Shown: positions 32,536-59,667 of the stretch, in pieces
How the letters are laid out: each line of letters opens with the position of its first letter
Position numbering within the stretch: the stretch's first letter is position 1
Notes under the pieces: model-generated
Database searches by the model: none
Seen by the model: only the letters and a program-made list of their open reading frames with translations
What the model was told of the DNA's origin: nothing
Program-made: the position numbers and the translations under genes
DNA from: Marsupella aquatica
Lineage: Eukaryota > Plantae > Marchantiophyta
DNA: 64,000 bases
Direction of reading: 5' to 3'
Assembly: GCA_973895155.1 (NCBI GenBank)
Contig: OZ316898.1
Coordinates: 19,541,292 to 19,605,291, forward strand

Positions 32536-34333
32536 TAGCTCAATACCCATGCGTTGCACAAAAGATGTTGTCTCCCAAGATGTCGTTAAGAAAAAAGATG
32601 TCGTGTCCTCTAAGATGTTGTTAAGACAAAAAGATGTTGTGTCGCCCAAGATGTCATTAAGAAAAATTAGGTTGTGTCCCCCAAGATGTCGTTAAGAAAA
32701 AAAGATGTGGTGTCTCCCAAGATGTCATTACTTAGAAACAAAATGGCGTGTCACCCAACTGAAGATGTCATGAAGAACAAAAATGTTGTGTCGCCCAATG
32801 TGTCATTAATAAAGAAAAAAGATATCCAAAGATGTTAAGAAAAAAGATGTTGTGACACCCAAGATGTCCTTAAGACAAAAGACATCATGTCAACCAAGAT
32901 ATTGTTAAGGAAAAAGATGTTGTGGCACCCAATATGTCCTTAAGAAAAGAGATGCCACGCTGCCCAAGATGTCGTTAAGAGAAACATTGTCATTAAGTAA
33001 AAAGATGTTGTTAAGACAAAAGTTGCACAAAAGATGGTGTGGTGAGAACGGGGGTGAGAAAAAATGTTGAGGTGAAAATAGATGTTGAGGTGAGAAAAAG
33101 AAGTTGAAGTGAGAAAAAGATGTCAAGGAGAGAAATGTTGAGGTGAGAAAAAGATGTTGAGGTGAACAATTGAAAGATGTTGATGAGAAAAGGAGATGTT
33201 GAGCTAAGAAAAAGAAGTAGAGCAAAAACTATGTAAAGGAGAGAAAAGATGGCGATGTGAGAAAATATGTGAAGATGAGGAAAAGATGTTGAGGGTGAGG
33301 GAAAGATGTTATGGTGAGATAAAAATGTGAAGGTGAGAAACAGGTCAGATGTCGAGGTGAAAACACATGTCAATCAGAAAAAGAGATGTTGAGGTGAGAC
33401 AAAGAAGTAAAGGTGAAGAGAAGATATCAAGAAGAGAAAAAACATGGCAAGGTGAGAAAAAGACATTGAAGAGAGAAAATATGTCGAGGGTGAGGGAAAG
33501 ATATTGTGGTGAGATAAAGATGTCAAGGTGAGAAAATATGTCAAGTCAGGTGAGAAAATATATTGAGGAGAGAAACAAAAATCAAGGACCTAAACGATGT
33601 TGAGGGTGAGAAAAAATTGTCGTGAGATAAAGATGTCAATGTGAGAAAAGACGGCGAGATGAGAAAAATATGTCAAGGCAAGGTAGAGTTGTTGTGGTGG
33701 TGTGCAACAACTTATGCACTGCACATAGATGGAGACTGAGATAATAGTCACCGCAACATAGAGTCCAGCACAACAAAGTGACAAAAAAATATGTTTTTTA
33801 TTTAAAAATTTTAGAGAAATTAATATCATATATATAATTTATACTCAAGTTTTTTCAAAACTTTAAAGTTATTATCCAATTCTTTAAGTCTCAATTTTAA
33901 TAATTAGCTTTTAATTAGTTGTCAATTGTTAGTTTTTATATTGGTTGGGTTTGGGTAGGCTATGGGTAGCTTGGGAAGAGGTCATTGAGATTAATAGAGA
34001 TATGGATGGATCCTACAATTGCAGAAAAACAAATTTTTACTTAAGACCCAGGATTGTTCCCATTTTTTCTTGAGTTTGTAAATAATACCATATCCATTTT
34101 TAGAGGATATGGTATATAGTGACTTGATACTCTTGCATACAACAGGGTTAGGTACCTTTTTTGTCTTTTGTTTCCACCATTAGATTCTTTTTTGTGTGAA
34201 AAGTGCATGCAACTTACAGGGTTAGTTACATTTTCTGTTTTGTGTGTCCACCACATTTTTTGTTTTGTGTGTCCACCAATTCATTACTCTTTGTGTGACT
34301 CTTCCTGTACTTTTTGGTTCACTCTATATTTAA
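32536..34333 (-). mobile_element. Helitron-like non-autonomous unit 1 of a head-to-tail pair (same family as 21860-23015)
   Basis: (C)TAGCTCAATACCCATGCGTTGCACAAAAG is the reverse complement of the Helitron 3' hairpin end. The AAGATGTTG/GAGGTGAGAAAA minisatellite interior is colinear with 34334-36485. Confidence 0.75.
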
Positions 34334-36485
34334 CTAGCTCAATACCCGTGTGTTGCACAAAAGATGTAGTGCTGCCCAAGATGTCGTGTCCTCTAAGATA
34401 TCGTTAAGATAAAATATGCTGTGTTGCTCAAGATGTCGTTAAGAAAAAATATGTTGTGTCGCCCAAGATGCCATTAAGAAAAAAAATGTGGTGTCGCCCA
34501 AGATGTCGTTAAGAAAGAAAATGGTGTGTCGCCCAACTGAAGATGTCAAGAAGAAAAAAAATTGTGTCGCCCAATGTGTCATTAATAAAGAAAAAAGATA
34601 TCGTGTCACCCAAGATATTGTTAAAAAAAAAGATGTTGTGACACCCAAGATGTACTTAAGAAAAATGATATTGTGTCACCCCAAGATGTCCTCGGGGATG
34701 TCCTTAAGACAAAAGATATCGTGTCAACCAAGATATTGTTAAGAAAAAAGATGTTGTGGCACCCAATATGTCCTTAAGAAAAGAAATGTCACATTGCCCA
34801 AGATGTCATTAAGAGAAAAGTTGTCGTTAAGTAAAAAAGACGTTGTTAAGACAAAACTTGCATAAAAGATGTTGTGGTGAGAAAAAGATGTTGAGGTGAA
34901 AATAGATGTTGAGGTGAGAAAAAGAAGTTGAAGTGAGAAAAAGATGTCAAGGAGAGAAATGTTGAGGTAAGGAAAAGAAGTTGAGGTGAACCTTAAGATG
35001 TTAATGAGAAAAAGAGATGTTGAGCTAAGAAAAAGAAGTAGAGCAAAAACTATGTCAAGGAGAGAAAAGATGACGATGTAAGAAAAATATGTGAAAATGA
35101 GGAAAAAATGTTTAGGGTGAGGGAAAGATGTTGTGGTGAGATAAAAATGTGAAGGTGAGAAACAAGTCAGATGTCGAGGTGAAAACAAATGTCAATGAGA
35201 AAAAGAGACATTGAGGTGAGACCTCGGGTGAGACAAAGACGTCAAGGTGCAAAAAGGATGTTGAGGAGAGAAAAAACATGGCGAGGTGAGAAAAAGACGT
35301 TTAGGAAAAAAAATATGTCGAGGGTGAGGGAAAGATTTTGTGGTGAGATAAAGATGTCAAGTCAGGTGAGAAAATAAATTGAGGAGAGAAACAAAAATCA
35401 GGGACCTAAACGATGTTGAGGGTGAAAAAAATTGTCATGAGATAAAGTTGTCAATGTGAGAAAAAATGGCGAGATGATAAAAACATGTCAAGGCAAGGTA
35501 GAGTTGTTGAAAAATATGTCAAGGCAAGGTAGAGTTGTGGTGGTGTGCAACAACTCATGCATAGAAATTGGAGACTGAAATAATAGTCACCCCAACGGGG
35601 TATTTACAAATGACAGGAAACAGCAAACAGTAACAGAAAACAGAAACTGATAACAAGAAACAAAAACTGGTAACAGGAAAATGAATGATAATATTTTTGA
35701 AATTGTTTTTTGGGAAAAAAAAAAGTTTTTTTTTCAAAATTTTATTTACTTTGCTAGCGCCCGGCGCCGGTAATGCTAGCGCCCAAAGTTAGCCAAAAAA
35801 TGTTGTAACTTAGATTTTTTTGGAAAATGAGACTTTTTAGAAAATATTTTGACATGGTTATTTTTCTTGGTAACAGTAACTTTTTGCTGGTAACAGGAAA
35901 ATTTTTCCTAGTACTAGTAAACCTGTTTCCTGTCACGCGTGCCATACCCACCGCAACATACAGTCCAAGCACAACCAAGTGACAGAAAAAAATATGCTTT
36001 TGATTTTAAATTTTTAGAGAAATTAATATCATACATATATTATTTATACTCAAGTTTTTTCAAATCGCTAAGGTTATTATCCAACTCTTTAAGTCTTAAT
36101 TTAATAATTAATTTTTTTTATCTTGGTTGGGTTTGGGAAGGCTATGAGTAGCTTGGGCAGAGGTAATTGAGATTAATGTGGATGGATCCTACAGTTGCAG
36201 AAAAACTATTTTTTACCTAGGATTGTTCCCATTTTTTCTTGATTTTATAAACAATACCATATCCATTTTTAGAGTATATCGTATATAGTGACTTATGATA
36301 CTCTTGCATACAACAGGGTTAGGTACCTTTTTTGTCTTTTGTTTCCACCATTAGATTCTATTTTGTGTGAAAAGTGCATGCAACAGCCAACAGGGTTAGT
36401 TACGTTTTTTGTTTTGTGTGTCCACCAATTGATTACTGTTTGTGCGAAAAGATTTCTTGTACTTTTTGGTTCAGTGTATATTTAA
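34334..36485 (-). mobile_element. Helitron-like non-autonomous unit 2 of the head-to-tail pair
   Basis: A|CTAGCTCAATACCCGTGTGTTGCACAAAAG at 34334. Both units end on the plus strand in CTTTTTGGTTCA.T.TATATTTAA. Confidence 0.75.
35597..35949. mobile_element. MITE with an 8-9 bp TSD (Mutator- or hAT-like) inserted in Helitron unit 2
   Basis: TIR GGGTAT.......TGACAGGAAACAG / CTGTTTCCTGTCA.......ATACCC. Flanks are CACCCCAAC and (C)ACCGCAAC. The empty site GTCACCGCAACATA is present in unit 1 near 33747. Confidence 0.82.
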
Positions 36486-39175: not shown

Positions 39176-39743
39176 CTCTAATCCACCCGCCCTCTGGCTT
39201 TACAAGATATCTGGGGCCCATTAATTTGGGCCATAATTGGGCCATGGGTTGGGCCATTGTCACTACAGTCGACCGTGTCTAAGTGCAGACTCCCGGGAAG
39301 ACACCCCGAGCCTGCAGTTATACACGGTATGCACTATGTAATAAGTGCATAATATTCATACTGTGCACTTATGGGTATGTGCCAGCTTTCGAGATTGGCG
39401 CATGCACTTATGCACGGAAGCTCGCGATTTTGATCAGTATGCAGTGACAAAGGATAAAAGCATGTGCTGTGCATTTGACAGGTTGAGTTTGCACCAGACA
39501 ATGTATGAGAAGATGCAAAAATTGAAGCAAATGGCAATTGAAGTCCATGACACACAATCAAATGCCCAAATGAATGAAACGTAAGAAAGAAACTATGTTC
39601 TAGGAGTGTGATTAGCTAGAAAAGACATTCCAAATGAACAGATGGAATGCTCTCATACAAAATTCAGTTCCTGTTGGACTGAGACATTGATCTGTTTACT
39701 TGGAAACAATCTCCAATCTACATGTCAACTTCTCAACATAGAT

Positions 39744-40193
39744 CTACTGACGTCCATTCTGAATGTGCCACTGCTCTAGTGACAAAGGCGGTTCCTCCAA
39801 ATCTATACGGAAGGGCTCCTCTGATATAAGCTTCCCAGTGCACATAGTAGCGGACAGCCAGTCCCAATGCACAGTGTAAATTCGCTCAGACAACCTACTT
39901 TGGCAATGCGCACAGATGCAGTGTGCTGCCTTGATGGAATCATAGATCGTTGTCACCACATGGGAAGTATCCTCATTGATTTCCGACGTAAGAATCCCTC
40001 CAAGCATCTCAAACCGTCATTTCAGAATGACATATCTCCCATGCCTGACTCTGCCATCGTAAATCATCACTGCCCTGATACCTTCAAATGGCTTGTACAG
40101 CCCACATACGCGAGCTGCTTCCTGGCTCTCAGTCAGGACTCGTTTGCGCTTCCATTGCCTTGCCTCCTTGTTGCTGCTTGCACTGGTTGTCAT
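39744..40193 (-). pseudogene. Single-BRCT-domain protein inside the pogo element (one internal TGA at 40017-40019)
   Basis: MTTS...WKRKR...PFEGIRAVMIYDG...ILK*RFEMLGGILTSEINEDTSHVV...IYTVHWDWLSATMCTGKLISEEPF matches the BRCT signature F.G...GG....T.HVV...V...WL. Confidence 0.8.
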
Positions 40194-40455
40194 TGCGAAG
40201 GCACCGCTAGCTTCCTTCCCCATCGCCAACTCCCAAAGACTCACAAAAAAGGTGAGAAGAAATGCAACATAAAAAACTCCAAAATGACCCAAAAAGCATT
40301 GTGCAAGCCCGACTCCTCCCGGGCACAAGTGAGGCCTTCCTGCCAATGCATTCTCCATTATTGCAGCACATAACAAAAGTGCAACACATGCAGCTAGAGC
40401 ACTTACAGACAAAATTAGGGCTCCAACAACTCCATATTGGTGAAGTAGAATTTCC

Positions 40456-41473
40456 TCATCCAAGGAGTTCGCCCGGGGGCACGACACTGTTATCGGGAAT
40501 TGCAGCGCCATCCCTTGTGAGTTCCTCATTGTCAAGCCCACAATTTGTAGCAAAGAATTGGTCAATGTTCGATTGCTTCAAGTTGTTGAGGTGTTCTCTC
40601 AAGAAAAACTTCTTGATTTTGTTCAACTCCAATGTCAGCGCATATGTATCATACTCCTGTTGCTGAAGAAACTTTGTGACACCCTCAAACTATGCGATGC
40701 CTGCTACAAATGAAATGTGGGGCTCAAGCACTGTCTCCCCATCTGGTACATCTTGAGGCTCATCAGGATTCACATCTCGAGCCTCAGATTCATTTGGGAC
40801 CTCATCGTCATCGTCTGCAATGTGATCAACCAAAAAATTTGCAATGTCTTTATCGTCAACGGGAAATGTGGGAGCATTTCGAACGTCGTCTGCAGCTAAA
40901 TACTCTTGTGCATCAAGCGTCACAGGATATGACAACTTTAATTGCACCAGATGATCTGCTAGGTCCTCCAAACTCTCACGCAAGTCCTGATCATCTACTG
41001 TCGCCTCCAAGTCCAAATCTATGTCCCGTCTGCAACGATTTGGCCTCCGATCCTGGTAAGTCACCAGTTGACAATGCTCCCAACATTTGCGGATTGTTTG
41101 TTGAGTGACTCCATCACTCCATGCTCGAACGACCATTGTCACAACCTCATATACATCCATTTTAAATAGTTGTGAATTGTCAAAGTCTTGCAACTGCTTC
41201 TTGATGAAAAATTTTCGATACCAACACTTGAAGTTCTGAATAATTCCACCATCCATAGGCTGAAATCTACTTGTTGTGTTGGCAGGGAGGAAGAAAACTT
41301 TCACCACCTTCAATTGGTCAGCAACAGGGCCCAAGAGGTGGCCGGGGGCATTGTCCAGGAGGAGAGCCACATTTGTTCGACCCAAAGCCTTCATGTGCTC
41401 CTCGAATCTCAGGATCCAAGCTTGGAAAATGGTCCCTGTCATCCAGGCCTTCTTGTTGGCATACCATTGAATT
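40456..41473 (-). pseudogene. pogo transposase, 3' half (DDE_1 domain, DD33D)
   Basis: WYANKKAWMTG, LLLDNAPGH, FLPANTTSRFQPMDGGII and IRKCW. Reading through the TAG at 40690 gives the C-terminal LKQSNIDQFF. Confidence 0.93.
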
Positions 41474-44400
41474 TAGAAACCGGGGCAATTTAGACCAAAC
41501 CTTATAGGACTAAGGCCACTAAGTCCTTTTTTACAACTTCAAATGACTCGGAACCATTGCACCGGTTCACATGAACACTACAAAAGACTGTGAGTGCTTT
41601 TTGGTTTAGGATAAGACTATGAAAAGTTTCCACGTACCCTACTTTGTGAAAGGGTGAACACTCTCGCACATGAGTGTTGTAGGGTTTAGTTGTGGGCCTC
41701 AATTTGATAATGGGCATATGGGGGGTTTACGTCCGCTATATTGAACACGTACAAACTCACTACATGTCTAAATGCCCTAATGTCTCATATACTCCATAGT
41801 GGGTTTAGGGGGGGTTTACGTCTCAAGGGTGGGCCGGTTATATGTGAAGGGTGTGGGTGGTCACCACTAAAGGGGGTTTAGTAGGGTTTATATGTCAAGG
41901 GTGGGCCGGTTAGGTCTCAAGGGGGTGGGGGTCACCAACATCCCGTTCTATTCAAGTTTGCCAAGCCAAGAATCGGGTGCACGCATACCCAAGATTTTTG
42001 GGCTAGCATGATTTTCAATTCACAGCCGGCTCTACTTCACCAACATCCGGCTTTATTGAACTTTTCCAAGCCAAGAAAAATTTGCTGAAATACCCAAGAT
42101 GGCCATGCAGTAACACTTCAATGTAGTGGTGTCTCACTTTGGGTGACACTCAACGGCTCACTCAAACGGTAAGGTTGAGTGGCTCCCCTTAATGACTTAA
42201 GTCCCCTAATCTAGTAAAGAGGCACTAAACTGGTCTTTGGGAGTGACTTTGGAGTGTTTGGGCCATCGTCATTGGACGCAAAACGTGAGGGGTCCAAGGT
42301 TCGGGGTTTTACGTTGGATTTAGGTTTTGGCTGTAGGGCTAAGAAGGTTGTGGCTGCTGCAACCTTCGATCGGAGCTAGTTGTGAGGGCTTCATTCTTCG
42401 GGGATTTTTGAGAGAAGGGCCTCTCATTGTTGCACAATTCTCCTGACCCGCACTGCCGATGTGTTGTGGCTGCACCCAGAGCGACTTGGTGTTGCCATTT
42501 GTTTCAAGAAGGTTGTGCTACCATCGCGAGCTATTGAGGAGAGGGCCAGTTGCTTGCAAAAGGATTTGTAGATTGTGTCGGAGGTCTAGATTTCTCCATT
42601 TCTACCAAGAAACGACGTGCAACAAGGCAATGTGGAGCGCAACGGCAATGTCCAGGGTAGTCCTGAGTGCTTAGGTCATTCCATTCCTTATGAGAAATGT
42701 CGTGCGGCAGGGCAATGTGCAGCGCAACGGCAACAATGTCGAGGGCACTCCTTAGTGCTTAGGTTTTCAGTGAGTTGCAGTTTGGGAGGAGCTATGATCT
42801 GGGGACTGAGGCGCTGAGGGTTTAGCTGAGGGGAGGAGCTGTGATCTGGGAAGGTGTTGCGGTGCCAAGGTCTATTGTAAGGTGAGGTGATTGTTGCGGA
42901 AGTTTAACTGTAGTGGGTCCTTAAGGTCGCGGAGGCATTCAAAGGAGGCGTGAGCAGGGCGGCAATCGTTTGTTGCTGCGGAAGGTGGACATTGGAGTTG
43001 TGAAGGCGCTGTGGAAGGCGACCACTACGGAAGGTGGACTGCAGTGGGTCCTTAAAGCTTGCGGAGGCATTGAAAGGAGGCTGAGCAGGGAGGCAATCGT
43101 TGCTGCTGCGGAAGGTGGACATTGGAGTTGTGAAGGAGGTCGTGGAGCTTAAAGAGCAGTTGCAAAATCGGGAGCCGGTTGTTTGTTAGGAGGAAGCAGT
43201 TGACAGTGCTGCCATTGGTTATCAGTGTCATCAGCCAAAGGTTAGTCCCGGCCATGCAGCTGAAAGTGCGCTTCTTTCATCCCTTTTCCAGCAACTTTAG
43301 TTCCACATTGTTTTGTTGGGTTGTCTGTTGAATACTTTCATTGCCTCTACAGGCTGAAGGTTACTATAGGCCCTGGCTTGCGCACCCACTCCTTACACTC
43401 ATGCCCAAAAACCAAACAACAAGTAGCAGAGCTCAAGCAGATCCGCTCCGCTCTGTTCTCAACTGGCTGCGTAGTAGCTACATCTCCTCTGGTCCATCCT
43501 ATTTTGAGCAATGTCATACCTCCATAGCATACAGCTTGCCTGATTGAATGGTACATTAGGTTCAGCACATTCTCCCTATGGCTGAAGAGTTATGGAAAAC
43601 CCCAACACAATGAAATTCGTTATGATTTGTCTTGGCAGTCGAAGCTGCTGAAATTGCCGATTCTGATTGGATTCGGTAGGAATTCAGAATTTGTTGAGTT
43701 TGTTTGTCGCTGGATATGAGTTATTCAAGACTCCATGATTTGAGAGAAGCCATTTAGCATCCCTTGTAGATCCTGGTACCATCTGACATTGTGAGGGCTC
43801 GAAAGCCTCAAGTGACCGGGCCATCGTTGTATGCAAATTTTTGTTGTTGTATTCATGTACATCCCTGCTTGGATGAGGCGTGGTGTTGCTTGTAATCATG
43901 TATTTCTTCACACTAGAAAAGCAGTCTGTCATATGAGGTTGTCGGGATTGTCTTCCGGTCAGTCATCTTACGTCTTTGTGTTGTTTTGCGTTTCAATGAA
44001 GGGCACTAGCAAGTAGCAAGAGCAGCGAGCTGGTGATTTGCACCTTAGGCTTGGGCTATGGAGGGAGTTGCTGCAGCACCACGACAGAGAACGAAAGCAT
44101 GGGTAACATTACCACTATAGTTGTTGAAGAAAATACCTTTACCTGCTGCCATTTAAGCCGAGTGCACCGCCTTAAGTTTAAAGATCCCATTGCTGGTAAG
44201 ACATCATGGCTACATTGCTTTTCGATGTTGTCCTCTGTCCTTTTGTGGGATTCAGCTTGAGCTAGCTGAATCCAATCTAGGAGTTGTTGCGCTAAGGTGA
44301 GACTTTGAGTTTAGGGTTGCTTCAGTGTCCGAGTAGGTTTTCTCTTTGCGTCGGCAGCTAGAAGGTAAGCTCGGGGGCTTTACAAAGGGTTAGTGTTGCG

Positions 44401-46302
44401 GACTTTCCCTCCTGGATGTTGTGTGTCTTCATTTGCAACTTGTTTGTGGACCTGTGATCCTGAGACTGTCAAAATTGTTGTGGCCGCACTGACAACTTGA
44501 TGACGCATTTTGTGGATGAACCGTTAGTAATCGCGAGTACAGCTCTCCAACAATTGCACTTACCATTTTTGACCACCTTGCATGATGTCCATCCGTGGGC
44601 TGGACCCCAAGAAGTAGATTTCGGTAGATTTTGTCTCTGCCCCCGGTCCTCATTTTGTGCAATGTCCGCCTGGCACTTGGTTCTTGATCCCTACATTATC
44701 GTCTGTCGCTCGGCTGCTTGCGGAAGGGATCAAACAGATTGGAGGTGCTTGGTCTTTTCATTTTGAGTGTCAAAGTTTAGGAGGACAGCTTGCACCATCG
44801 CCAACAAGAATGACCTGCTTGCAGAACAAGAGGGACGAGCGTGAGCTGCTTGCAGGATAGGAGATTGACCGCGAGCACGAGCTGCTTGAAAAATAGGAGA
44901 CTGAGGGCAACCTGCTTCTTTGTTGCTACTCTGGTTGCGCTGCTACATTGGTTGTTGATCTTCACCCACCCACTTGCCTACTCAATTGACAGAGTACAGC
45001 TTTGTCTCTGCGTCTGTTACTGCTGTCTTTGTCCCTCCCCTTGAAATTGTGGGCCTTAAAAGGTCAGTAAGTTGGCTTATGTAGTTTTTATGTCCCTCCG
45101 CTATGTCAATGCGTGTTTCATTGCATCAGGGCATCAGTCGCTGTTTGCCTATAACCGGACTGTTCATTCTCTGTCCACTCATTTGATGTAATTCTTCCCA
45201 TTGCCGCCCAATGCTATGGCACCCATGCTACAATTTGTGGTTTTTGTCTAAGCACAAATCCTCTCTGTGCCTGGTCTCTGTGTCCCGTCATTTGGATTGA
45301 TTGTGTAGACGTTTCCTCTTCTCCTAGTCCTTGTCATCCACCAGCCAAAGCACATTGGATTGTTTTCAAAGGCGGGCTGTGTAGTTTGGAGGGTTTGATC
45401 TATGCAGCGGATTTGAGCAGATTGGCGGTTGTTAGTTTCTTCTTGTAAAACCTGTCTGTCTTTTCTGCTTTTGGCCATGCTCCTTCACTTCTTGCTGCAA
45501 GCTCAATGTGCTTCAACTATGGCAATATTCACTTACCCTATCCCAACGGCACTGCCGTGAGCTGTAGGACAGCCAACAGAAGCAGATTGTATCGATTGCA
45601 TGTAAGTCAGGGTATTTTATGTATTGCAGAACAACTGTCCAAGTATGCTGCAATGGCCGGTCTTGCGCAGCTGAATGAGCCAATTTCATTTTCCCTGTGC
45701 ACTTCTATTTCTCAGAGAATTCCCTGGTCATGCTCATTTCCCCCAGAGTTAGAAAACAAAGAAGAAGAGCTGACTAATTGTAATTCCAATCCATATCCTG
45801 ATCGGTCAAGGATTGTTCACTACATTGGCCTTGTCATTGGCCGAGGTCACCAAATTTTGCTTGGTTTCATTCCTATGGAGCACTGCTGTGATGGATTTGT
45901 CGTAGCATTCTGCAAACTCTCACGGTTTGCTTATGGCCATTATTTGCAATTCGCTGCTACTAATATGTCTTCTTCTGAGCAGCATACACCAGAAGTAAGC
46001 AATAGTGGAGGTTTAACTGCACATCAACACATCTACTGAACTACCTCTCTGCTGCTCACTGGAGGGTGAGACTTTCACTCTTTCTGGATATTGTAGTTTG
46101 TAAGCAAGTTGATTAGGAGTGTTTCATGCTATGTTTACACTGTGACCCCTAGCTGGAACCAATGGAATGACACAGTGAGTGGGAACTGATAATTTAAGGT
46201 TGGTTGCTGTTGGTGAGGCAAGTACAGCTCCAGCTCATCTTGCTGATCGAAGGTGCTTATCAGAGGACGTGAACACACGACATCTCCACAAAAGCAACAC
46301 TT

Positions 46303-46752
46303 ATGGTGAGGACCCGCAACGCTGAACATGTGCGGCTTGCACACAAGGCAGAGATGTTGCGCCTTGAGTATGTCAGACTTGGGATCCTTCCAGCCCAGTC
46401 TGCATGGTACTTTGAGTACCCAGTTGTTGCCAGGAACAACTACAGCCGGCCTGTACCTGCTTCTCCACCCTTCCCAACATCCTTGGTATTTCTGTCTCTA
46501 GTACATGACCCGCCACAAATTAGGGCCCAAGGGTGTGTGCACAGTTGCCAATATGACTGTCCTGCCTGTAGGGCTTCTGGCCTAGAGTTGGATGACCGTT
46601 CTCTTGGATGTCAGTTTTTTCACAGAGCACAATGTATCATCTGGAACCACTCGCCATCCTGTAGTGTGCCTGGCGATGTCACTTGTCCTGCCCTCCCAGA
46701 CCCCACCACCGGTCACTTTGGTGTCTACACATGTTTGGATCACACGCTCTAG
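46303..46752 (+). CDS. Small protein with a divergent PHD-like zinc finger (CACTA cargo)
   Basis: CPAC...C(QFFHRAQ)CIIWNHSPSC...YTCLDH resembles PHD spacing (Cx2C...C..Cx4H..C...YxCx2H). It has an MVRTR-type start and is co-oriented with the other cargo ORFs. Confidence 0.55.
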   Translation: MVRTRNAEHVRLAHKAEMLRLEYVRLGILPAQSAWYFEYPVVARNNYSRPVPASPPFPTSLVFLSLVHDPPQIRAQGCVHSCQYDCPACRASGLELDDRSLGCQFFHRAQCIIWNHSPSCSVPGDVTCPALPDPTTGHFGVYTCLDHTL

Positions 46753-47421
46753 AGGACCACTTGTCACACCGCATGCACAAACCAGAGACCATTGACCTAT
46801 AACTTAACACTTTGACTTGAACAGAGAGGATATTTACTTAAGATTTTGAATTATGACCAATTTTGGGTCCAGGGTTTAGGGTCAACAGTACATAACTTAT
46901 CCTATTATGGCTGCACTAAGTACAATATCCTAATTTAAGAGGCTAGCAAGCTCACTTAAAAGTCTCCTTTCAAAGACTGGAATTAATGGGCCATGTGATA
47001 ACCTGGAAAAAGTGATTTCTGCCTAACTTATTTGTCTCATTCACTATCATAGCCTATTTAGGATGTATAAATTACAACCCTGATCACAGTGCTTGATACC
47101 AATCTTGTTCAAAAAATGTCTGTTTTACATGTCACGACTGTTATATGTGATTCAAATGCATTAAATCTTGTTGCAGATCTCCTTTGGTGAATCATAGCCA
47201 CAAAATTGAGGTGTAGGTGGAGCTATTGTACGAGGGGATCAGTTTTTAGTGTGGGCTCAACAAACCAAAAAGTATGTCTACTCTGCACATGTGTGTGAAC
47301 ATTTCATTGCAGTAGCAATTGCCACTCTAGTCTATATGCTACACTGTACTTTTTGTACACTGCACTAAATTGTATTGTCTGTGCACTCTGCTAAATTGTA
47401 CTATCTGTCTCATGCGTAGGC

Positions 47422-48102
47422 ATGGCACGCCCTAAAATCCGAGCCAAGAAGCGGGGGACAGAGGTGAGCAACACAGGTGTAGTTGGGCCAGATGGTAGTA
47501 ACTTCTCCGCAAGTCAGATTTTCCAGAAGGCAGCTCATTGTTGTGCCATTTGTGACGATGGTGGTGGCTTAGCCATATGTGAGGGCCCTTGCATGAGGCA
47601 TTTCCACCTCAACCCGGAGTCTGACCTTGCTGCAGAAAACAACTGTCCAGGGGTGGGCCTCCCGTCAGCACACCAAGGAGGCTGGATGTGCACTGATTGT
47701 TTGGAGAAGCAGGCTAAGTGTGCACAGTGTGGGAAGTTGGGGTCTTATGAGGGCTCTGTTGATGCTCCACCACTTGTTAGGAAATGCCCTGACAGATATT
47801 GTGTGAGGTTCTTTTGTTTTTCATGTTTGCCCGATCTTGCCACAGCTTGCCCACTTCATAAGTGCAAGGCATGTGGTCAGCACGATGAAGATTTCTGGGT
47901 GGACATAGTCCACTGTGTTAGGTGTCCCACCATGTGGCACTTTCATTGTTTGAAGGAGCGTCAAGCAGAAGGCTATGCTTGTGACAGACACATCTATGAT
48001 CACTCTGCACATGGTGTTGATCGATGGATCTTCTATTGTCATCGCCATGCCATAGATCCTACTTTGCACACTCCCATGAGAGATCACATTTCTTGGCTTT
48101 GA
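47422..48102 (+). CDS. Stand-alone EDM2-type composite PHD finger protein (CACTA cargo)
   Basis: Intact 226-aa ORF with an N-terminal basic NLS-like stretch. CAICDDGG.LAICEGPCMRHFH, WMCTDC, CAQCGKLGS, CPLHKCKAC, CVRCPTMWHFHCL and IFYCHRHAIDPTLHTPMRDHI parallel the EDM2 PHD region as recalled (CAICDNGG..CCEG.C.RSFH, CPLHKC..C, CRRCP..YH..CL, IYC..HEID..L.TP.RDH). Confidence 0.85.
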   Translation: MARPKIRAKKRGTEVSNTGVVGPDGSNFSASQIFQKAAHCCAICDDGGGLAICEGPCMRHFHLNPESDLAAENNCPGVGLPSAHQGGWMCTDCLEKQAKCAQCGKLGSYEGSVDAPPLVRKCPDRYCVRFFCFSCLPDLATACPLHKCKACGQHDEDFWVDIVHCVRCPTMWHFHCLKERQAEGYACDRHIYDHSAHGVDRWIFYCHRHAIDPTLHTPMRDHISWL

Positions 48103-48700
48103 ACCTGAATAATGTACATGCATAGTGCACCTGATGTGGATACCTTGGAGATTGCAGACATTCCAATTTTGAGAAGAAGGACCTCTGTAGGAGAGGATGC
48201 TTAGGCAACAAGTACCCTAAGTTCATTACTTGTTCCTGGGTACATGCCTTCAAAAACTTCCCTTAAGCCTTCTAGGAACTTTTTTAACTCTGCAATCATT
48301 TTGATCACGACTTACATGACACTGCTTAAATTAAATCAGGACTTCTCATTATGAGCATATAAGTTACAAGGCTATTTAATTTGCGAGAATTCCCTTAAAG
48401 TGTACCAACATTTTGTATTCTCATTGAATGTCTGCCCATTTACAACATCTGTATGTGGCATCACAAAACAATTGCACTTGTCACCTTCAATATTGTGAAG
48501 GCACATATTCAAACTATGAGGTGCATGCTTGCAGGTGTCTAGTATGTTTGTCCCAATATTTCTCCCGTTTGGAATCGGAGCAGAGACTCACCAGACGACT
48601 GGACTGGACCAAGTTATAAACGCAGCATTTTAAGGGCCCTCCGATTATCAGGTGAACGCATTATCTTATGGTCTGCAGTGATTAGGTGGCCCGTGTGTAC

Positions 48701-49549
48701 ATGGCCTCTAGGAAACGTACAAAGGTTGACCACCCACCTCTGTTGGCTGGAATCAAAGCCATTTTGATTCCTGGCCACTATGGGTTCACCCAAGTGAGTT
48801 GGCCAATCGTACAAAAACGATTCTCAGAGTTCCATGGGACTGAAGTCAAGGACATCACTCCACAGACTACACATGTTGTTGCGGGGACATGGCTGGATGT
48901 GATGAACAAGTGGTCATGGTCCTTCATTGATTCTGCCATTACCAACCAAGGTCTAAAAGTAGTTGAAGTCTCTTGGCTGACCGATTCTGTTAAACATAGG
49001 TGTGTACAGAGTACTGAGCAATATGAGTTGTGGGAGAGTGAGGAGGCCACTGTAGAGGCTTTGGATGAAAAGGAAGCCTATGAAGCAGCGGCAGAGAAAC
49101 CCAACTTTGCTTCTGTCCAATATGGACCTGTTATCAACATAGGACACCATCCTATGCGTGCAGATGCTATATTGAATGAGCATGGCAAGGAGAGAAATAC
49201 CATTATGAAGGGGTTCAGTGTGGTATTTGCAGAAGAAGGAATTGGGGAGACTAAGTGCAGACTGTACAAGTCCATAGTTGTTGAGCTAGGTGGGACAGTG
49301 GAGGAGAGTCTAACATAAACCTCCACTCATGTTGTAGGTCTGTCATACATGAAAATATGCAGAAAATTCTTTAAGACAATAGTGCGTGATTTTGTCATGA
49401 ACAACAATCTTTGGGTGCTTTCCCCTGATTGGCTTCTGGAATCAGCAGCTAGAGGGAAGCGACAGCATGCTTGGGACTTTGATATTTTTGAGGCCTGGCC
49501 CTCCAAGATTCAGCGGAGATGTATGCTTAGCAAAGGTGGGAGAGAGTGA
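48701..49549 (+). pseudogene. Tandem-BRCT protein (CACTA cargo) with one in-frame TAA at 49316-49318
   Basis: BRCT1: FHGTEVKDITPQTTHVVA...VVEVSWLTDSVK. BRCT2: MKGFSVVFAEEGIG...VELGGTVEESLT*TSTHVVG...VLSPDWLLESAARG. The 49349 ORF is in frame with the 48686 ORF. Confidence 0.85.
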
Positions 49550-49725
49550 GGAGTAGGAGTCCCTCATATTTTTGTATAAATCACAATTTTGTAATAAATG
49601 TGATCCTTGAACTAACTCATCTTGTCATGGTTGGTCGCAGTTGAAGTGATTGTTGTTTCCTGCTGCGTGGGGTGTGACTGTGAATCTACTTGCTGGGCTC
49701 TGTTTGGTTGAAGACTTTGGTGGGT

Positions 49726-50259
49726 ATGCTGCCTCTTCCAGACCGTCAGGCCCTATGTAGGGTCCTCCTACGGGTTGCATCGTGCATGGCTACTGCTTGG
49801 GCTTACTTGTGTGGATTGGTAACCAGACAGAGTGTAGCTCCATCCGAGATAATGCCTGTAGACCTTGGATGTGTTGTGAATGTTGTGGTGAATGAGGATG
49901 CACAGTCGGAAGAGGACATTTACTTTTCAACAGATGAGTTAGACAAGCACGATGCTGTAGGTGGTTCCTTGTTGCCTGATTTGGCAGATGATATAGTTCT
50001 TACACATGTCTGGCCGAGGGTTCTTGTGGTGTTTGGCGCACAAGATATCTGCAAATATAGACTAATTAGTACCCAGTGGAGGGACTTGGTAGCAACATGT
50101 GCACCATGGAGGGCACTGCTGCCACTGCTTGTAGGCACGGATCGAAGACCACCATGGCATGAGCAGGGTTTAGACCTTGATGACTTAATGTACATGCCTG
50201 AGTACCTCAGGGCTGAGTGGCATCGACAACAGGATTGGTATCCGTATTTGATGTGGTAG
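49726..50259 (+). CDS. F-box-like protein with no recognisable substrate-binding domain (CACTA cargo)
   Basis: SLLPDLADDIVLTHVWPRV...CKYRLISTQWRDLV fits the plant F-box consensus LP.LPDDI...I..R......R.VS..WR.LV. The start codon is uncertain. Confidence 0.7.
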   Translation: MLPLPDRQALCRVLLRVASCMATAWAYLCGLVTRQSVAPSEIMPVDLGCVVNVVVNEDAQSEEDIYFSTDELDKHDAVGGSLLPDLADDIVLTHVWPRVLVVFGAQDICKYRLISTQWRDLVATCAPWRALLPLLVGTDRRPPWHEQGLDLDDLMYMPEYLRAEWHRQQDWYPYLMW

Positions 50260-50585
50260 TAAGATGAGGACATCTCACACCGGTCTCGCACCTGGCACCT
50301 GTGTCTATGACTATACATGATTGGACTCTGATATGGTCATGGATGTACGTGCAGAGGCAGTACATGTGAGGACAGCGGAGGAGTTGACACCCTCGAACAT
50401 TTAGGAATTTTGTCTCATTCACTTGAGAATAGGTACATGACTCAGGCACCTATATTTTTTGTTTTTTTGTTTTTTTGGAACGTTACGTATTTTGGCAAGT
50501 ACAGTCGGGGGTGAAATCCTTAACAGGAAGTGTATTTTTCACTTGCATAATAAAATGATAGGGTGCTGAGTGCGTGTGTATAGTG

Positions 50586-53500
50586 ATGGCTCCAAGGTTG
50601 CCTCTTCACAACCCATTTAGGATTAGGCATCATGATTCTAAATTGTGGATGCGTGAACAAGCCCGGGCCGCCCAAGGTAGGAGTAGGAGGATGAGATGCC
50701 CATGCACACAGTGCCAAGGATTCAAGTCGTTGAGTTTGAACGCTGTGCACCTTCACCTGCTGCGGCATGAAAGGCACCCTCGGTGGAGGGTTTGGAATGT
50801 ACCAGCAGAAGAAGACTCCTCTGATGAAGAGTGGAGAGCTGACTTTGTGGATTCTAATACAGCTAGGCGTAGAGACTACGTAGAGCAAGACATAGACTGT
50901 GCAGAGGATGGTCCTGGGGTCCAACATGAGAACGTGGATGACCAAGATGTAGAGGCAGAGGCAGTCACTGAGGACGGTGGGATGGATGTCCCAAGAATGG
51001 TTCAAGAGATTTTTGAAGACCTTGATGCTTTTTACGACACAGTGGAATCAGAAGAGGACAATGAACCGCAGCCACACATTGGCGACGGCCAAGCTGAACC
51101 TAACTTTGACATTGGGGAAGGTGCAGCAGAGAGGGAGTGGGTGTTTGGGGGCCCAAAACACATCAAAGAAGCTTGCATTCCTATCTACGAGGGGTCGAAC
51201 TGCTCCAAGCTGGGTTTTGTCGTGTTGTTGTTGAACATATGTGGCAATCACAATGTTCCCAATATATTTGTGACAGAGTTGTTGACCTTCCTGTGCCGAA
51301 ATGTGTTACCAGATGGTAATTCAATTCCAAAAAATATGTACGAGGCTAGGAAATTGATGTCTAACCTTGGGCTGAACTATGTGTCTATTGACGCATGCCC
51401 TGATGGGTGTGTTCTCTTTCGCAAAGAGCATGCAGATAAATTGACATGCCCTCATTGTGGTAAGCACAGGTACAAGAATGTAGGGAAATGTACACATCCT
51501 GCCAAGGTTCTTCGTCATTTTCCTCTCATTCCTAGACTACAACGTCTGTTTAGATGCCCTGCCATTTCCAAGCTGATGACATGGACTCCTGATAACAAGA
51601 GCAGTGATGGCCTGCAGCGTCACATTGGAGATTCCAACCATTGGAAATTTGTTGATGAGAGGTGGCCACAGTTTGCTGTAGAGAAGCGGAACTTTCGATT
51701 TGGTCTATCACTGGATGGAGTAAACCCATTTGGAGACAAAAACAACCGTTATTCATGTTGGCCGGTTACGCTGCTAAATTACAACCTTCCCCCATGGATG
51801 ACTACAAAGAGGTTTTTTGTCATGATGGTGCTGTTAATCCCTGGACCAGCTTCTGTGACCGAGCAATTCATAGATATCATGTTGGCTCCAGCAGTGGAAG
51901 AGTGGAAGACTTTGTGGATAGAAGGGGTGTTAACCCATGATGTTCTGAAGGGGCTTCTTCGACCCAGCCCCTTTAGACTGCATGCAATTTGTTTGCTGGA
52001 TATAGCAGATTACCCAGGCCATGGCATCATATCTGGACGAGTGACAAAGGGCTATGTGGGGTGCACACCATGTGGGAAAAATGTGACAAGTGAGTGGTCG
52101 CATGCCCTGCACAGTATGAAATTTCAGGGGCATAGAAGGTATCTGCCTGTTGATCATCCTTACAGGCACACACGGTCTCAAATTGCACACTTCAACAACA
52201 AAATAGAGCTTCGTGGCCCACCACAGAGGGTCACCAGAGAGCAAGTCCTGAGGTGGGCAGCCAAGAAGGCTGATTGGGACAAGAGAAGTGCCACTGATCG
52301 AGAACCTGAGGATCCAGTGGTGAAACACGGTGTGAAAAGACAGACCTTGATGGACTTGGAGTTGGAGTACTGGAGGGTAATGTACTTAGCCTCCAGCCCC
52401 TGTATGATTGCAATTTTAGATTGGAGCAATGGTGGATTGATGTTGGTTACAATCCTCCTATGTGGTTAATTAGTGTTTCTGTTGTTGAATTCTTTGCTTT
52501 GTGGAGTGCAGGAATTCGAGCCCAGCAAACACAATGTGGACGTCATGCACATTGAGAAAAATATTTGTGAGAGCTTGCTGAAGTTCTTGTCGGGTGAGAA
52601 AGATACAGGAGCAGTTCGAGCTGATATGCAACAGAAGGGGATTCGCCCTCACCTTTGGTTGAAGCCCCATGCAAGCAATCCCAATGTACTTCTCAAGTTC
52701 CAAGCTCCCTATGTGTGCACACAGGATGAATGGAAGACATTCTTGTATAGATTGAGCTGTCTGAAAGTGCCCTCTGGCTATGCTGGTGCCTTCAAGAAGC
52801 ATATTACAAAGAATAAACTTGGCAGTATGAAAACACATGACTACCATGTGTTGATGCAGCACATTTTGCCCCTATGCCTCAGAGGTCTCATGCAGAAACC
52901 AGTCCGTAATGTCATTCTCCGACTGTGCAATGTATTTCGCCGTATATGTGTGAAAGTGTGGGATCCCCAAGGATTGGAGCAGTTGAAGCAGGATGCTGCT
53001 TATGTCCTCTGTGACTTGGAGATATACTTCCCCCCTGCTTTCTTTGATGTTATGACTCATCTCCTAATCCATGTGGTAGAAGAGCTAGGGCAGTATGGGC
53101 CAGTCAGTACCAGATGGATGTACCCTATGGAGCGATACATGAAGTTGTTGAAAGGTCATGTGAGAACATACTACAGGCCAGAGGCTTCCATGGCATTGGG
53201 GTACATTAAGGATGAGACGTTGGGATTCCTAACAGAGTACATGGCTGGGTCTGGTGAAGCTATGACAAGAGTTTGGAAATCTGGTGAAGATGATGGAGTG
53301 AGTGGCGAGGTTGTTGAAGGTGTGGGACGTGCTGTTCAGCTGCCTGTTGTGATTCGAGACAAGGCTCATTCATATGTGCTGGCAAACACAGAGCCTATGC
53401 AACCATGGTGGAGGTGAGTGATTGAATTGACTTGCCTTTGTTGTGATGCTTCTTGTCTGTTCCAAGGGTGATCTTAGGTTGTCATGTGTTGTTTAGACCT

Positions 53501-54286
53501 AACTATGCCTGTACCTCATATTGCAGGGAATATGATATGCAAAAAGCTGCACACTCTGGGCAGCAGGATCCCTTCCCACAGTTCGAGCAGTGGATTCGGG
53601 TGACAATTCGAGAGCATAGTAGACATCACCCAGATATGGAGAAGGATTTGTATCTTCTATCTGTGCCACCGCGATTGTCTATTCTGACCTACAAACGGAT
53701 GAGAGCTTATGGAAATCATTATCGAGTGAGGGATGAGCAGGGTGACCATTATGTATCATATGATTGTGGTTTGATTTCTGTGTTTGAGCAGAGAACCTCT
53801 GAAGAACAGAGGGGGTGGATGAAGATGGGTTACGTGGGGGAGTTGACCGACATTTGGGTGTTGAATTATGGTAACACAAGTGTCCCAGTGATATTGATGA
53901 AGGGATCATGGGTGAAATCAGAGTGGCAGAGACCAAGGGCCACCATGAAGCGTGATCATGATGGGTTCTTGTTGGCCAATTTTAGGTCCAGAGTACCAGA
54001 ATGGTCTGAGCCTTTTGTTTTCCCTAGCCAAGTTGAACAGGCTTTCTTTGCAGATGTGGAGGAGTCACATGGCTGGAGGGTGGTATGCCATAGCCAAGCA
54101 CGGAACAGGCGGATGGATGGAAGTAAAGTAGAGTTCAGTTTGGATGACCATGCTGCATTCGAGCATCGTAGTCATGAGACTGTACTTCCAACTCGGGCAG
54201 GGACTAACTACATCCCCTTAACATTGAGAGAGACATATGATGAACCTGGGCAAATGGAATATGATGAGGTTGATGATTTGCAATAG
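50586..54286 (+). CDS. CACTA TnpD/Tnp2-type transposase; predicted exons 50586-52376, 52512-53413 and 53527-54286 (about 1150 aa), apparently intact
   Basis: RCPC..C transposase-associated domain, IDACPDGCVLF, LRHFPLIPRLQRLF, GLSLDGVNPFG, YNLPPW, DIADYPG, DVMHIEKN, MKTHDYH, FPPAFFDVMTHL..H, WMYPMERYM and EPFVFPSQVEQAFF. GT-AG junctions keep the reading frame. Confidence 0.93.
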
Positions 54287-54463
54287 GCAACAACTGGCGA
54301 TTGGCAAGTATGAGGTTGAGGATGACTACCTGCACAGAGTCATAGAACGGGAATTGCTGCCTAGAATGATGTTTAGGATAGTTGGATATGCATGAAATTG
54401 ATTGATACTTTGAATTTAGTGTGCTGATTCTCCCTATTTGGTTGTGGGTGCTGTGCAGAAGCT

Positions 54464-57400
54464 ATGGGGGAAGAGGGTGATGACATGGAGACAGACATGG
54501 GGCTTGGAGAGTGGGGTGAAGAGGAAAGATTGGATATGGATGGAGACCCAGATGCAGGGGGCTCACAGAAAAATGCACCTGTGCAAGATGCACAGGGCCC
54601 TCATCAAGTCCCAAGTAGGTGGGCAGCTAGAGAGAAATCACATAATCCATACCCTAGAAGGAGCCAGAGTTATTGGCAAGGGACGCCTGATAATTATGAT
54701 GATGACTATGATGGAGCAGAAGATGGATGGGATGAATATAAACACCCAGAGCGTGGTAGAGACGGGTACAGAGGGCAATGGAAAGGTGAGGAGGATGATT
54801 GGACAAGTAAGTGCCTTGTGCTAGTGATTTTGTGATGGTAGTAGAGATTTAGCTCAATATGCACTTATCTGATGTGTAGCTAGGGCAAAGAGTTTATCTT
54901 ACAGGTCCATGAGTGTGGCATGTACCTGTTGGTATGCAGACTCTGATTGGGACAATCACGAAAACAACAAAGGCCATCCACGTTCAGATAGGAGGCAATC
55001 ATTCACAGGCGGGAGAAACGCCCCTAATTCATCAAGACAAAGCAATAGGACAGGTGGTCCAGAACCATCTATGCGCCAAGGGAGAGGTAACTTGGTCATT
55101 GCAAAATTGCTCTGAAGTCCACTGTATATTTGGCAGCGGGATTTATGATTCATACTTACCTAATGTAAGTGACTGTAAATGGATCCTGTAAATGTGCAGG
55201 GACTCCAGGGAGGTTTGGACAATGCAATCCAGGCCGTGGGGGGAGATCAGGCCGTGGAGGGACCCCAGGCCGTGGGGGGACACCAGGCCGTGGAGGGACA
55301 CCTAGTAGCGCTTCAGGGAGTACCAAGGCAGGAGACAGTAACAAATTTGGTAAAGTAGAAGTGAATTCCGAAGGTTGGATAACTCCCACATGTGATGGTA
55401 AGAACCGTTGGCATTCTGACCTAAGAGGAGAAGTATTGCGTTGGTTAGATTTGAGCATTACAGAGTTTAGGAGTCAGAACAAAGCTGATTGGGCTGCTAT
55501 CTGCAAGGACATTCTTGAACGGTGGGACTATGTTGGTAATGATGGTAAGGGCCCAGTTGAAGATTGCATATCAGATTATGCAATGAGGATTTTGAAACAA
55601 GAGAGGCATAGGTTGAAAAGGATGTGGATAGACAATGGTTCTAACAGGAGAATGCCACCACCCCCATCATTGGAACTGGATCAATGGACACGGTTAATTA
55701 AAGGGTTCATGTCGGAGGCTGGACAGAGCAAGAGTGAACTGATGTCAAATGCTCGAGGCAAAGTGAAACACCTTTCACAGGCTGGGAGAGGAAGTTATGC
55801 TCCAGTGAAAGAACAATTGGTAAGGCAGTGACATGCCTGATAGTAAGCCTCAAACTTATCATCTTGCTACCATTATTACATTTTCATTGACAATCAACAC
55901 TTGGTTTCATTCATATGTATGTTGATGTGGACTGCAGAAGAAATTGACAGGTGAAGAACCATCAGCACAAGAAGTGAGAGAGGAGTTCATGAAACAAAGG
56001 AGTGAGGTGACAAGTGTGACTTCCAAACAGGTGATTATGTTGTAATTATGTATGTTCTATGACTATTTGGCCTTGAGCATCAGAAAGAAATGTAGTAGGA
56101 AGTAAGCAACCAGTTCTTGGGGACAGTTATCTGAGATATGTAAGCTGTGTTATGACAGGGAACTGTTACAACTCTCACAGAGATGTGTGAACGGTTGAAG
56201 TCATTAGAGTGTGGACTCCCTCGAGTGGAAAGTAAATTGGCTGATCGTTTGGATATTGTGGAGGCATCTGTAGCGAACCTTCTTGCATCAGTGGAATCTA
56301 ATTTCAAGCTTGTGATTGAAAAATTGGGTGGTTCCCAACCAAACAATGAGGGCAACATTATACAAAGTGTGCCCTTGTTAACAAAAAAGGGAATTGGCAA
56401 ATCTGACACAGGTATGGAAATGACACCAGCCCATTGTTCATTGTGTCCTATGTTCAAATGTTAGAAGTAAGTTTTCATGAATTGAGTGAATGGTTTGAAT
56501 GCAGGAAGAGTGGAGGCAGAGAAGGACCCTGTAATCAGTAAGTAGAAGGGCAAGAAGGTTGCTGAGACAGGTAACCTGCTATGATCCAGTACATTACATT
56601 TGAAAAGTGCATGGAGTTTTGTGAAGCTTAAGCCGGTTGGAGGTAATCTTTTCTGTAAGAACTGGTTGGATGAACTGGGATCTGAAGTGACATCATGATT
56701 GATGTATCAGGTGATTCAAAGAGCAATAATGAAGAAGATGTGCCCAGTGCCTCAGTGACCATAGCCAAGGAGGTATCAGGTAAGCTGATGCTTTAAATTC
56801 CTCTATATGAATGTTGAGCAACAATTCAGTGGTTAATAGATTCAACCTGAATATTGTGGTGTGTTTATTGATCAACAGAAGCAGACATGGAGCATATGGC
56901 AATGGCAAAGAAGGGGAAGAAGGCTGTTCATAATGGTAAGGAGATAGTGACAACTTTGTGGTTGGTGACATGTACATTTAGCACATGTGATGAGTGATTG
57001 ACTTATGTTGGACATGACACTGAATTGTAGTTGATGCAGAGTTGACAGACTCTCAACCAAGTGGGAGCAGGGTGAAGCGACGTCGAAACTTGGGAGCAAC
57101 ATTGGATGCAAGTAAGATTGTAGATGCTTCAATTGAAGCAAGTACAATGTTGGCAGATACTGAGATGATGTCGCAGGGAAATCCTGCTACACAATCAGAA
57201 GTGTCAAATATGGATGCAGATTCTTTGAAGAAGAGTGTAGCCAATTCTCGATCACCAGCACAAAACACTCGTGCCAAAGTCATGACTCGCAACCAAGGTA
57301 TGAATAATGTCATGTATAAGCCACCCAGGAAAGCCAAGAAAAACAGCCAGGGTAAGGTGGAGGTGATAGCCACAGCAGAGCCAGTCCATAATCTTCTATC

Positions 57401-58295: not shown

Positions 58296-58531
58296 AAAGA
58301 CTAAAAATGACTCACCAAAGCTACCCACACAAAGACTAAAATAGACTAAAAAATCCAGTCTATTAAACGACTTATAAACCAGTTCTATAAAGGACTCAGT
58401 TTATTATAGTAACAAAACATACGATTCGCAGTCCTATAAAGGACTGGAGTCCTTCCCAATCGTTTCCAAGTCCTATACGGTACTGAATAGTCGTTTAATG
58501 GGGTCTAAATACCCCCCTGTTTCTACTAGTG

Positions 58532-59257
58532 TTCCCAGGTTGTTAGGCCGTTTGATTTTGCGCTGTGTGAAGCTTATTTCTCAGACTTGTTGATCACTAG
58601 AGGGGGGAGCTTCATACTCCCATCCATGTTCGACATTAATGCAATGGTAATTCGGTCCTTGCATTTCTTCTGCCCATTCACGGCTTTGTCCTGCAAGGTC
58701 TTGTTTGGTTGCAGCTTGTAAAATAACCCAGTCTCATCCATGTTAAACACATCTCTGTCTTCAAAAACAGAGATGGTTGCCTTCAAGGCAAGAAATTGGT
58801 TCCAAACTCCCTCTGTGATCACGCATGAATCACCTTCGCCATGTAGGATTCGCATCGAAATGTTATGTCGTCTCTTAAACCCTGTCAACCATCCTGTTGA
58901 GAACTTGCATTCCTTCAGTGCAGGGTTACTTACTTGTAGAGCAATGTACATCTCCCGTGCTTTCTCCATTAGCAGCTCATCCTCCTGCGCAGTGAGAAAC
59001 CAGCGGTACATGGCCTCCTCCACAACCGGCACTCTGGGGTTCTTGTTCCTCTTCACCTCGTTGCTGGTGACACCCGAGAGCAAAGCAAAGCTCTTCTTCA
59101 ATACTCTGCCAACAGTTGTCTCGTGAACTTTCTCCCCAAACGTCGCCTGTACCCACTCAACCAAATCCTTGTTAGTCAGCCCATTATTCTGTTGCTTGTG
59201 CTTACAAATGTCGCGCTTCTGCTTGTGGCTCAAGGTCGTCAACTTCTTTCCCCCCAT
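58532..59257 (-). pseudogene. pogo transposase, 5' half (CENP-B-type HTH domains and the first catalytic Asp)
   Basis: LTTLSHKQKRDIC, VEEAMYRWF, FSTGWLTGFKRRHNI, VFNMDETGLFY, KDRIT...NMDGS.KLPPLVINKS. Confidence 0.93.
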
Positions 59258-59667
59258 GATGACAGTGCTTCAGAGAACAGTGTGCTGCCACACACTGTTT
59301 CCTGTGTTCGCTGTTGCTCTTTGTCAGTCCTAAACCTCGATCCCCTTCACATTCTCTCGTGTAAACCTCGTGATTGTGCTGTCAGGTCACACATAACTTG
59401 CTCGTACCCTAAACCCTCGTACAGGCCCTGCCCAAATGCTTTAGTGCACCTTAGTACTGTATCTGTTTGTTTGCAGCATTATTATGGATAAGTACTTGTA
59501 AGTACTCTATGTAATTCTGTCCAGCACTTATAAATAAAAGCATCTTGTCTACGGGAAACACTAATTGATAAATGCATGTGAACTCTTATAGACGGAATGC
59601 AGTTAAGAATCTTGTTGTTTAGTGACGCCAAGATGCTCTTATAAACGGTGCATTTTTGAGGATTTTT

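Follow-up and report, generated by a model that had tools for sequence, protein, structure and literature searches.

Why would two unrelated DNA transposons at one locus each carry a gene for a BRCT domain, a docking module of DNA repair proteins, and what would such a protein do for a transposon? The locus lies in a stretch of 64,000 nucleotides from the liverwort Marsupella aquatica (contig OZ316898.1, positions 19,541,292 to 19,605,291 of the forward strand), here called the window, which by its content of receptor kinase and alpha-amylase-family genes is land-plant DNA. It holds a pogo element and a CACTA element, and each was found to have its own small BRCT-only gene, broken in this copy. 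Our answer to the second question is tentative: when intact, such genes would likely encode decoys for the end-joining protein Ku, derived from DNA polymerase lambda (Pol lambda).

BRCT genes inside two nested elements

The sequence-only reading had placed one BRCT open reading frame (ORF) beside the pogo transposase and a tandem-BRCT ORF in the CACTA element. BRCT domains were confirmed in both, but neither frame is open, the pogo gene being interrupted by a TGA and the CACTA gene by a TAA (Table 1). An earlier ATG at 40223 lengthens the pogo-side gene, which had been given as 39744-40193. The CACTA gene does contain two repeats (Pfam BRCT E 4.2e-13, 49.8 bits against a cut-off of 21.3), and the pogo gene matches the same Pfam family with E 0.003 and 18.1 bits, below that cut-off. 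The predicted model of the pogo BRCT is a confident BRCT fold (predicted local distance difference test score, pLDDT, 95), with Z 12.8 and a root-mean-square deviation of 2.2 A over 93 residues aligned to the PARP4 BRCT. Both ORFs have the basic leaders noted before (RKR and KRKR). A common layout of the three repeats had also been described; G, G, G, HVV, WL and E are indeed shared, but identity is only 19-20%, and the CACTA and pogo BRCT proteins barely match when compared directly (E 0.005). A 30-base intron spanning the TAA of the CACTA gene was rejected, since the repeat alignment is contiguous there. We also rejected Pol lambda itself: only the BRCT matches, the ORFs end after it, and there are no Pol X catalytic domains.

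The two transposons do not lie side by side. The CACTA element (about 41474-58531, ~17 kb) is inserted within the pogo transposase gene, on the minus strand, so that the elements are nested. Pfam matches show the split, with the helix-turn-helix (HTH) domains and DDE_1 positions 1-27 on one side of the CACTA element and DDE_1 positions 43-177 on the other. A CENP-B-type HTH and a DDE_1 transposase are both present, as in pogo elements, and the TnpD transposase identifies the inserted element as CACTA / En-Spm. Two stops interrupt the pogo transposase, and its frame is broken at the CACTA junction.

The pogo BRCT gene begins 230 bases past the transposase stop, inside the candidate terminus at 39266. 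On that side a candidate pogo end thus lies beyond the gene; the opposite (5') end is at best a remnant that matches it at only 11 of 16 bases, beside a host segment duplicated at 98.7%. The tandem-BRCT gene sits between the CACTA ends, on the same strand as the other genes of the element, in a run upstream of TnpD that consists of a Cys/His ORF, a PHD ORF, the tandem-BRCT gene and a weak F-box-like ORF.

Contigs and CpG content both support the assignment of the BRCT genes to their elements. The stretch is present in seven sequencing runs from five studies, four of these runs being used for the contig comparison. Contigs that differ at 29-41 sites over about 320 bases run from the tail of the pogo transposase into the start of the BRCT gene (runs X2 and X4), and the pogo-BRCT link is therefore common to divergent copies. 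In CpG depletion each BRCT gene resembles the element that carries it rather than the host gene, with values of 0.23-0.39 for the CACTA cargo and 0.29-0.38 for TnpD, of 0.59 for the pogo BRCT and 0.54-0.55 for the pogo transposase, and of 0.70 for the host kinase gene. Contig depth in run X4 was 62 for the flank contig, 130-232 for pogo contigs and 21,000-36,000 for bins of the CACTA BRCT gene; summed contig depth is not a copy number, but this gene is plainly highly repeated. Across the stretch, contig cover peaks on the Cys/His-rich ORF, where it reaches 170,000 in X4, well above the left 3 kb of CACTA, and for this reason the CACTA cassette may be common to several element subfamilies.

A stand-alone BRCT family and its probable donor

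A profile of the three window repeats was searched against 1.84 billion representative sequences and gave 271 matches, the best 150 of which are listed. Small stand-alone BRCT proteins were all 10 of the best and 20 of the 30 best among these 150, and about 30 such relatives with 23-61% identity occur among the matches listed. By type, with subfamily labels set by eye after the sequences had been viewed, there are 16 tandem-type, 10 CxxC-type (P0096 included) and 7 of a third single type. The rest of the 150 comprise 1 Mesotaenium fragment, 4 proteins with Pol X domains, about 49 single-BRCT pieces (most of which group with Pol X-domain proteins), 57 multi-BRCT hosts and 6 unassigned sequences. 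The named family members belong to Riccia fluitans and R. sorocarpa. P0001 is an open relative of the CACTA tandem protein, with 61% identity, two one-residue gaps and no frameshift. Word-based searching turned up a single relative of the tandem protein in 530 candidates and none of the pogo BRCT protein in 23, and a weak search for a longer or fused form found none among 7993 candidates. A metagenome scan with P0154 as query returned one 1404-base contig without usable context, a scan with query A1 found nothing, and three viral scans gave no match.

In the trees, among them quick trees of an 88-row set, the pogo repeat groups with CxxC-type proteins and each CACTA repeat with the counterpart repeat of other tandem proteins, which on sequence grounds makes the pogo repeat (CxxC) and the CACTA repeats (tandem) members of two distinct subfamilies. 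Exchange of the module between the two elements had been proposed; a recent swap is rejected, as approximately unbiased (AU) tests on a 42-row subset, with very long branches and near-duplicates left out, gave p 0.005 and 0.002 for trees in which the pogo repeat was grouped with the one or the other set of CACTA repeats. Convergent capture, the alternative proposed, may have taken place. In the helix-2 region, 9 of the 10 relatives of the pogo type have a CxxC motif, usually followed by Pro-x-Arg. Trp motifs and a linker helix are also conserved in the family, and the tandem type has a linker of about 60 residues and no other domains. The predicted model of P0001 had a pLDDT of 31, too low to read the packing of its two repeats.

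Which host protein donated the domain was addressed by profile comparison with six sequences per host set; the Pol lambda set was animal-type, and the host sets had themselves been retrieved with the window profile. Pol lambda was the best host profile for all 4 subfamilies, scoring 101/92 for the CxxC type against 69 for the next host set, 111/112 against 82 for the Riccia type, 114/99 against 94 for tandem repeat 2 and 82/80 against 79 for tandem repeat 1. Per domain, Pol lambda was the best of 7 equal-depth host sets in 27 of 43 cases, the pogo repeat included, and in 7 of 10 of the CxxC type. Thus, the Pol lambda resemblance suggested by the sequence-only reading is clear for the pogo type and narrow for the CACTA type. 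A profile of 15 family sequences, an algal fragment among them, matched the human Pol lambda BRCT in the PDB with 38.7 bits, one TOPBP1 repeat with 40.1, BRCA1 with 34, Lig4 with 28 and TdT with 26, while single-sequence PDB searches returned only BRCA1, TOPBP1 and Rtt107, at E 0.03 or worse. For the Riccia member P0024, on which the comparison with Atlas models rests, the nearest model was a streptophyte Pol lambda cluster (TM score 0.65), and rows 2, 3 and 7 were also Pol lambda. FastTree recovered the family as one group (support 0.94), and support in IQ-TREE was weak (38/90).

Several results count against this donor. The CACTA repeats of the window score best on TOPBP1-like and BRCA1-like sets, a mixture-model tree splits the family, and AU tests do not reject other donors (TOPBP1-like, BRCA1-like), in an alignment of 98 columns. 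Pol lambda was absent from the 50 best structural matches, where XRCC1 and PARP4 are ranked, and the Pol lambda comparison covers animal-type sequences and one algal fragment. In architecture, the front end of Pol lambda, a nuclear localization signal (NLS) plus BRCT, likewise has a basic leader and then one BRCT of about 95 residues, and the pogo and Riccia types retain its Arg and its hydrophobic residue in helix 1; the transposon proteins differ from it in lacking polymerase domains, in having a CxxC insert or a second repeat and in being encoded by transposons. Judged from these comparisons, Pol lambda ancestry is quite probable for the pogo type and slightly favoured for the tandem type, and the stand-alone family as a whole likely descends from this front end.

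Ku contact and competing explanations

Human Pol lambda docks on the Ku70/80 bridge via R57 and L60; its BRCT by itself reaches sites of damage if Ku is there, and gap filling is suppressed by catalytically dead Pol lambda, an effect that is lost when R57 is mutated (PMC12056208). Arabidopsis Pol lambda has an NLS and a BRCT at its start, and action at transposon excision sites is cited for it (PMC4444747). Because the isolated BRCT is recruited and the dead enzyme blocks gap filling, a nuclear BRCT without an enzyme is a natural candidate competitor at Ku. At the positions equivalent to R57 and L60, alignment mapping gives R and I for the pogo repeat, K and L for CACTA repeat 2, and S and I for CACTA repeat 1, and the Ku-contact residues would thus be kept in the first, half kept in the second and lost in the third. 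All 7 Riccia-type domains and 4 of the 10 CxxC-type domains (the pogo one included) retain the pair, compared with 4 of 70 domains from multi-BRCT hosts.

For a cut-and-paste element to gain copies, the donor break has to be repaired by copying the element back. An intact BRCT protein is predicted to dock on Ku at transposase-made breaks and to crowd out genuine Pol lambda, which would damp gap-filling end joining at the donor site; with less end joining, copying of the element back from the sister chromatid would be favoured and its copy number would rise. We infer this benefit from general knowledge of cut-and-paste elements. The genes are thus likely to be old transposon accessory genes, probably Pol lambda-derived decoys with a predicted binding to Ku, that are dead in this copy.

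The state of the copies speaks against such a function. In this copy neither BRCT gene is intact, nor is the pogo transposase. The TGA probably recurs in a divergent pogo contig, and the metagenome relative L001 also has an in-frame stop. The TAA of the CACTA gene is not among the 40 of 53 rows listed for variation, and for this reason it may be common to many copies; the tallies leave one unplaced T-to-C change in each of X2, X4 and X5. In those 40 rows, changes in the CACTA BRCT gene were 9 synonymous to 31 non-synonymous (neutral expectation 22%, p 0.52) and spread evenly over codon positions, and 8 of the 31 non-synonymous changes give the P0001 residue; 13 changed codons of the pogo BRCT gene divided into 2 synonymous and 11 non-synonymous. 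The recently amplified copies are without sign of constraint, and their variation looks neutral. Few tandem repeats retain the Ku-contact pair (2 of 15 first repeats and 2 of 9 second ones). The transposon context of the relatives comes down to P0050, in which a BRCT is joined to a piece with 16 of 29 residues identical to the DDE region of this pogo; it hints at pogo linkage elsewhere, and the gene model may be chimeric.

The loss of the pair from most tandem repeats would fit working accessory factors whose partner is not Ku: together with the PHD reader and the F-box-like adaptor, they would anchor proteins of chromatin or of damage signalling, or target them for degradation. We consider this possible, if short of probable. 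It suits the tandem gene best, which lies within a PHD-BRCT-F-box cassette and whose repeats in the window are closest to the TOPBP1-like and BRCA1-like sets, and the Trp motifs, linker helix and CxxC point to new surfaces. The tandem BRCTs of BRCA1, TOPBP1 and Rtt107 likewise have two repeats and were the top PDB sequence matches for the three-repeat profile; the transposon tandem type differs in its linker, in having no other domains and in its pocket residues. The BRCA1-type phosphoserine pocket, with Ser-Gly behind strand 1 and Thr-x-Lys within helix 2, is not matched, as VSGL and TLKY of BRCA1 face eeGv and sisi-like columns in the profile alignment. That the single-BRCT types keep the helix-1 motif of Pol lambda also argues against a general change of partner. 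The tandem type may nevertheless have moved to partners other than Ku.

The stops and the neutral-looking variation would also be expected of neutral passengers, i.e., host fragments that were taken up on one or two occasions, multiplied along with the elements and, like most Pack-type captures, are now decaying. Elements lacking PHD and BRCT are seen in one contig that jumps over 44960-49683, though with a weak joint, and pseudogenisation is named as the commonest fate of captures (PMC13317346). This explanation seems unlikely to us, however, since about 30 clusters with less than 50% identity have preserved entire domains, the layout of two repeats and the subfamily motifs, from which the deeper family appears to be under a constraint that the recent copies do not show, and since P0001 is so similar without a frameshift. 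Dead copies of any cut-and-paste gene vary neutrally, and the variation figures concern the BRCT genes only.

It is quite improbable that the BRCT proteins promote end joining instead of hindering it, by delivering Ku, Lig4 or Pol lambda partners to integration gaps, possibly while tied to the transposase. In Arabidopsis, Lig4 and XRCC4 are cited as binding partners of the Pol lambda BRCT, and transgene integration is poor in the mutant (PMC4444747), but in the present proteins no enzyme or transposase-binding domain is attached, one plain intron reading between the pogo transposase and the BRCT gives no in-frame fusion, and the weak search above found no fused form. Our preferred reading, held tentatively, is the Pol lambda-derived Ku decoy. 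Its extension, that DNA transposons of at least two superfamilies in early-diverging land plants keep diversified decoys of this kind to steer the repair of excision breaks, is rather doubtful.

Relation to known cargo and other features of the window

Captured accessory genes such as Ulp1/KAONASHI, VANC of MULE/VANDAL and those of Pack-CACTA also place a host-derived domain inside a terminal-repeat transposon beside the transposase (PMC13317346); the present cargo differs in being a DNA-repair docking domain and in occurring in two superfamilies. Literature searches, with bioRxiv supplements and Repbase outside their coverage, found no paper describing BRCT cargo in transposons, and 'BRCT' is absent from the main text, as far as available, of three recent papers, PMC13317346 among them. 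Single RTT107_BRCT matches are tabulated without comment in 1 of 775 CACTA, 1 of 337 hAT and 1 of 1846 MULE clusters (active) (PMC12973397 Table S6), and another supplement has no such matches. Host-domain capture as accessory genes is thus known, but a repair-docking family in two superfamilies appears undescribed.

The finding is real, unusual and testable, but the genes are broken in this copy and their function is a prediction. Known plant transposon cargo mostly counters silencing. If the decoy function is true, break-repair cargo would give transposons a new means of acting in their conflict with the host, eukaryotic transposons would encode modulators of end joining, and a small natural end-joining inhibitor would be of interest for plant gene targeting. 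Even without it, there would be an undescribed stand-alone BRCT family that gene catalogues would mistake for host repair genes.

Table 1 Features of the nested pogo and CACTA elements and relatives of the pogo BRCT
Feature	Position or members	Strand	Remarks
Candidate 3' terminus of pogo	39266..39291		starts CAGT after TA; no matching intact partner found
Single-BRCT gene of pogo	39744..40223	-	basic leader; CxxC subfamily; in-frame TGA 40017-40019
pogo transposase, 3' half	40456..41472	-	Pfam DDE_1 E 1.9e-25; internal TAG 40690-40692
Damaged CACTA left end	41474..41640	+	matches right end from 7th base on; six terminal bases missing
Cys/His-rich ORF	46303..46752	+	CACTA cassette; no convincing Pfam match
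PHD-finger ORF	47422..48102	+	three NSD-like PHD matches, Pfam E 1.2e-5 to 5.4e-3, each below cut-off
Tandem-BRCT gene of CACTA	48701..49549	+	basic leader; in-frame TAA 49316-49318
F-box-like ORF (weak)	49684..50259	+	Pfam F-box E 0.068
CACTA TnpD transposase	50586..54286	+	three exons; Pfam Transposase_21 E 4.7e-59, DUF4218, DUF4216
TnpA-like exon	55169..55831	+	Pfam Transposase_24 E 0.014
CACTA right terminus	58513..58531	-	begins CACTA, then TTC
pogo transposase, 5' half	58532..59257	-	two HTH domains (Pfam HTH_Tnp_Tc5 E 2e-9, HTH_ABP1_N), DDE_1 start; stop 58577-58579
Possible pogo 5' terminus remnant	59634..59649		11/16 bases match other end; 18 bases from duplicated host segment
CxxC-motif relatives of pogo BRCT	P0011, P0021, P0022, P0034, P0041, P0064, P0082, P0083, P0096		

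The TnpD frame is open for 1150 codons once two GT-AG introns are skipped. The right end of the CACTA element is intact with TTC, and the left end (41466-41480) is short of six terminal bases and of one target-site base of the 3-base duplication. This loss resembles an aborted excision, and the copy is probably immobile despite its open TnpD. Pack-CACTA identity (transposase-less, with captured fragments) was ruled out by the open TnpD and by whole domains with intact relatives. The PHD ORF is intronless and has three PHDs and a basic leader.

Around the two elements, a leucine-rich repeat (LRR) receptor kinase segment is duplicated at 98.7% (window 925-5265 and 59668-64000), its second copy starting 18 bases from the possible pogo 5' end. 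A Ty3/gypsy-type retrotransposon (about 8-14 kb) has a C5 cytosine methyltransferase-like ORF at 10047-10790 on the minus strand, between protease and reverse transcriptase (Pfam DNA_methylase E 1.6e-6); methyltransferase captures of this kind are described in algal retrotransposons. Arrays of a 35-base repeat at 22.4-23.0 kb and 32.5-35.5 kb, in opposite orientation, flank the alpha-amylase-family gene region.

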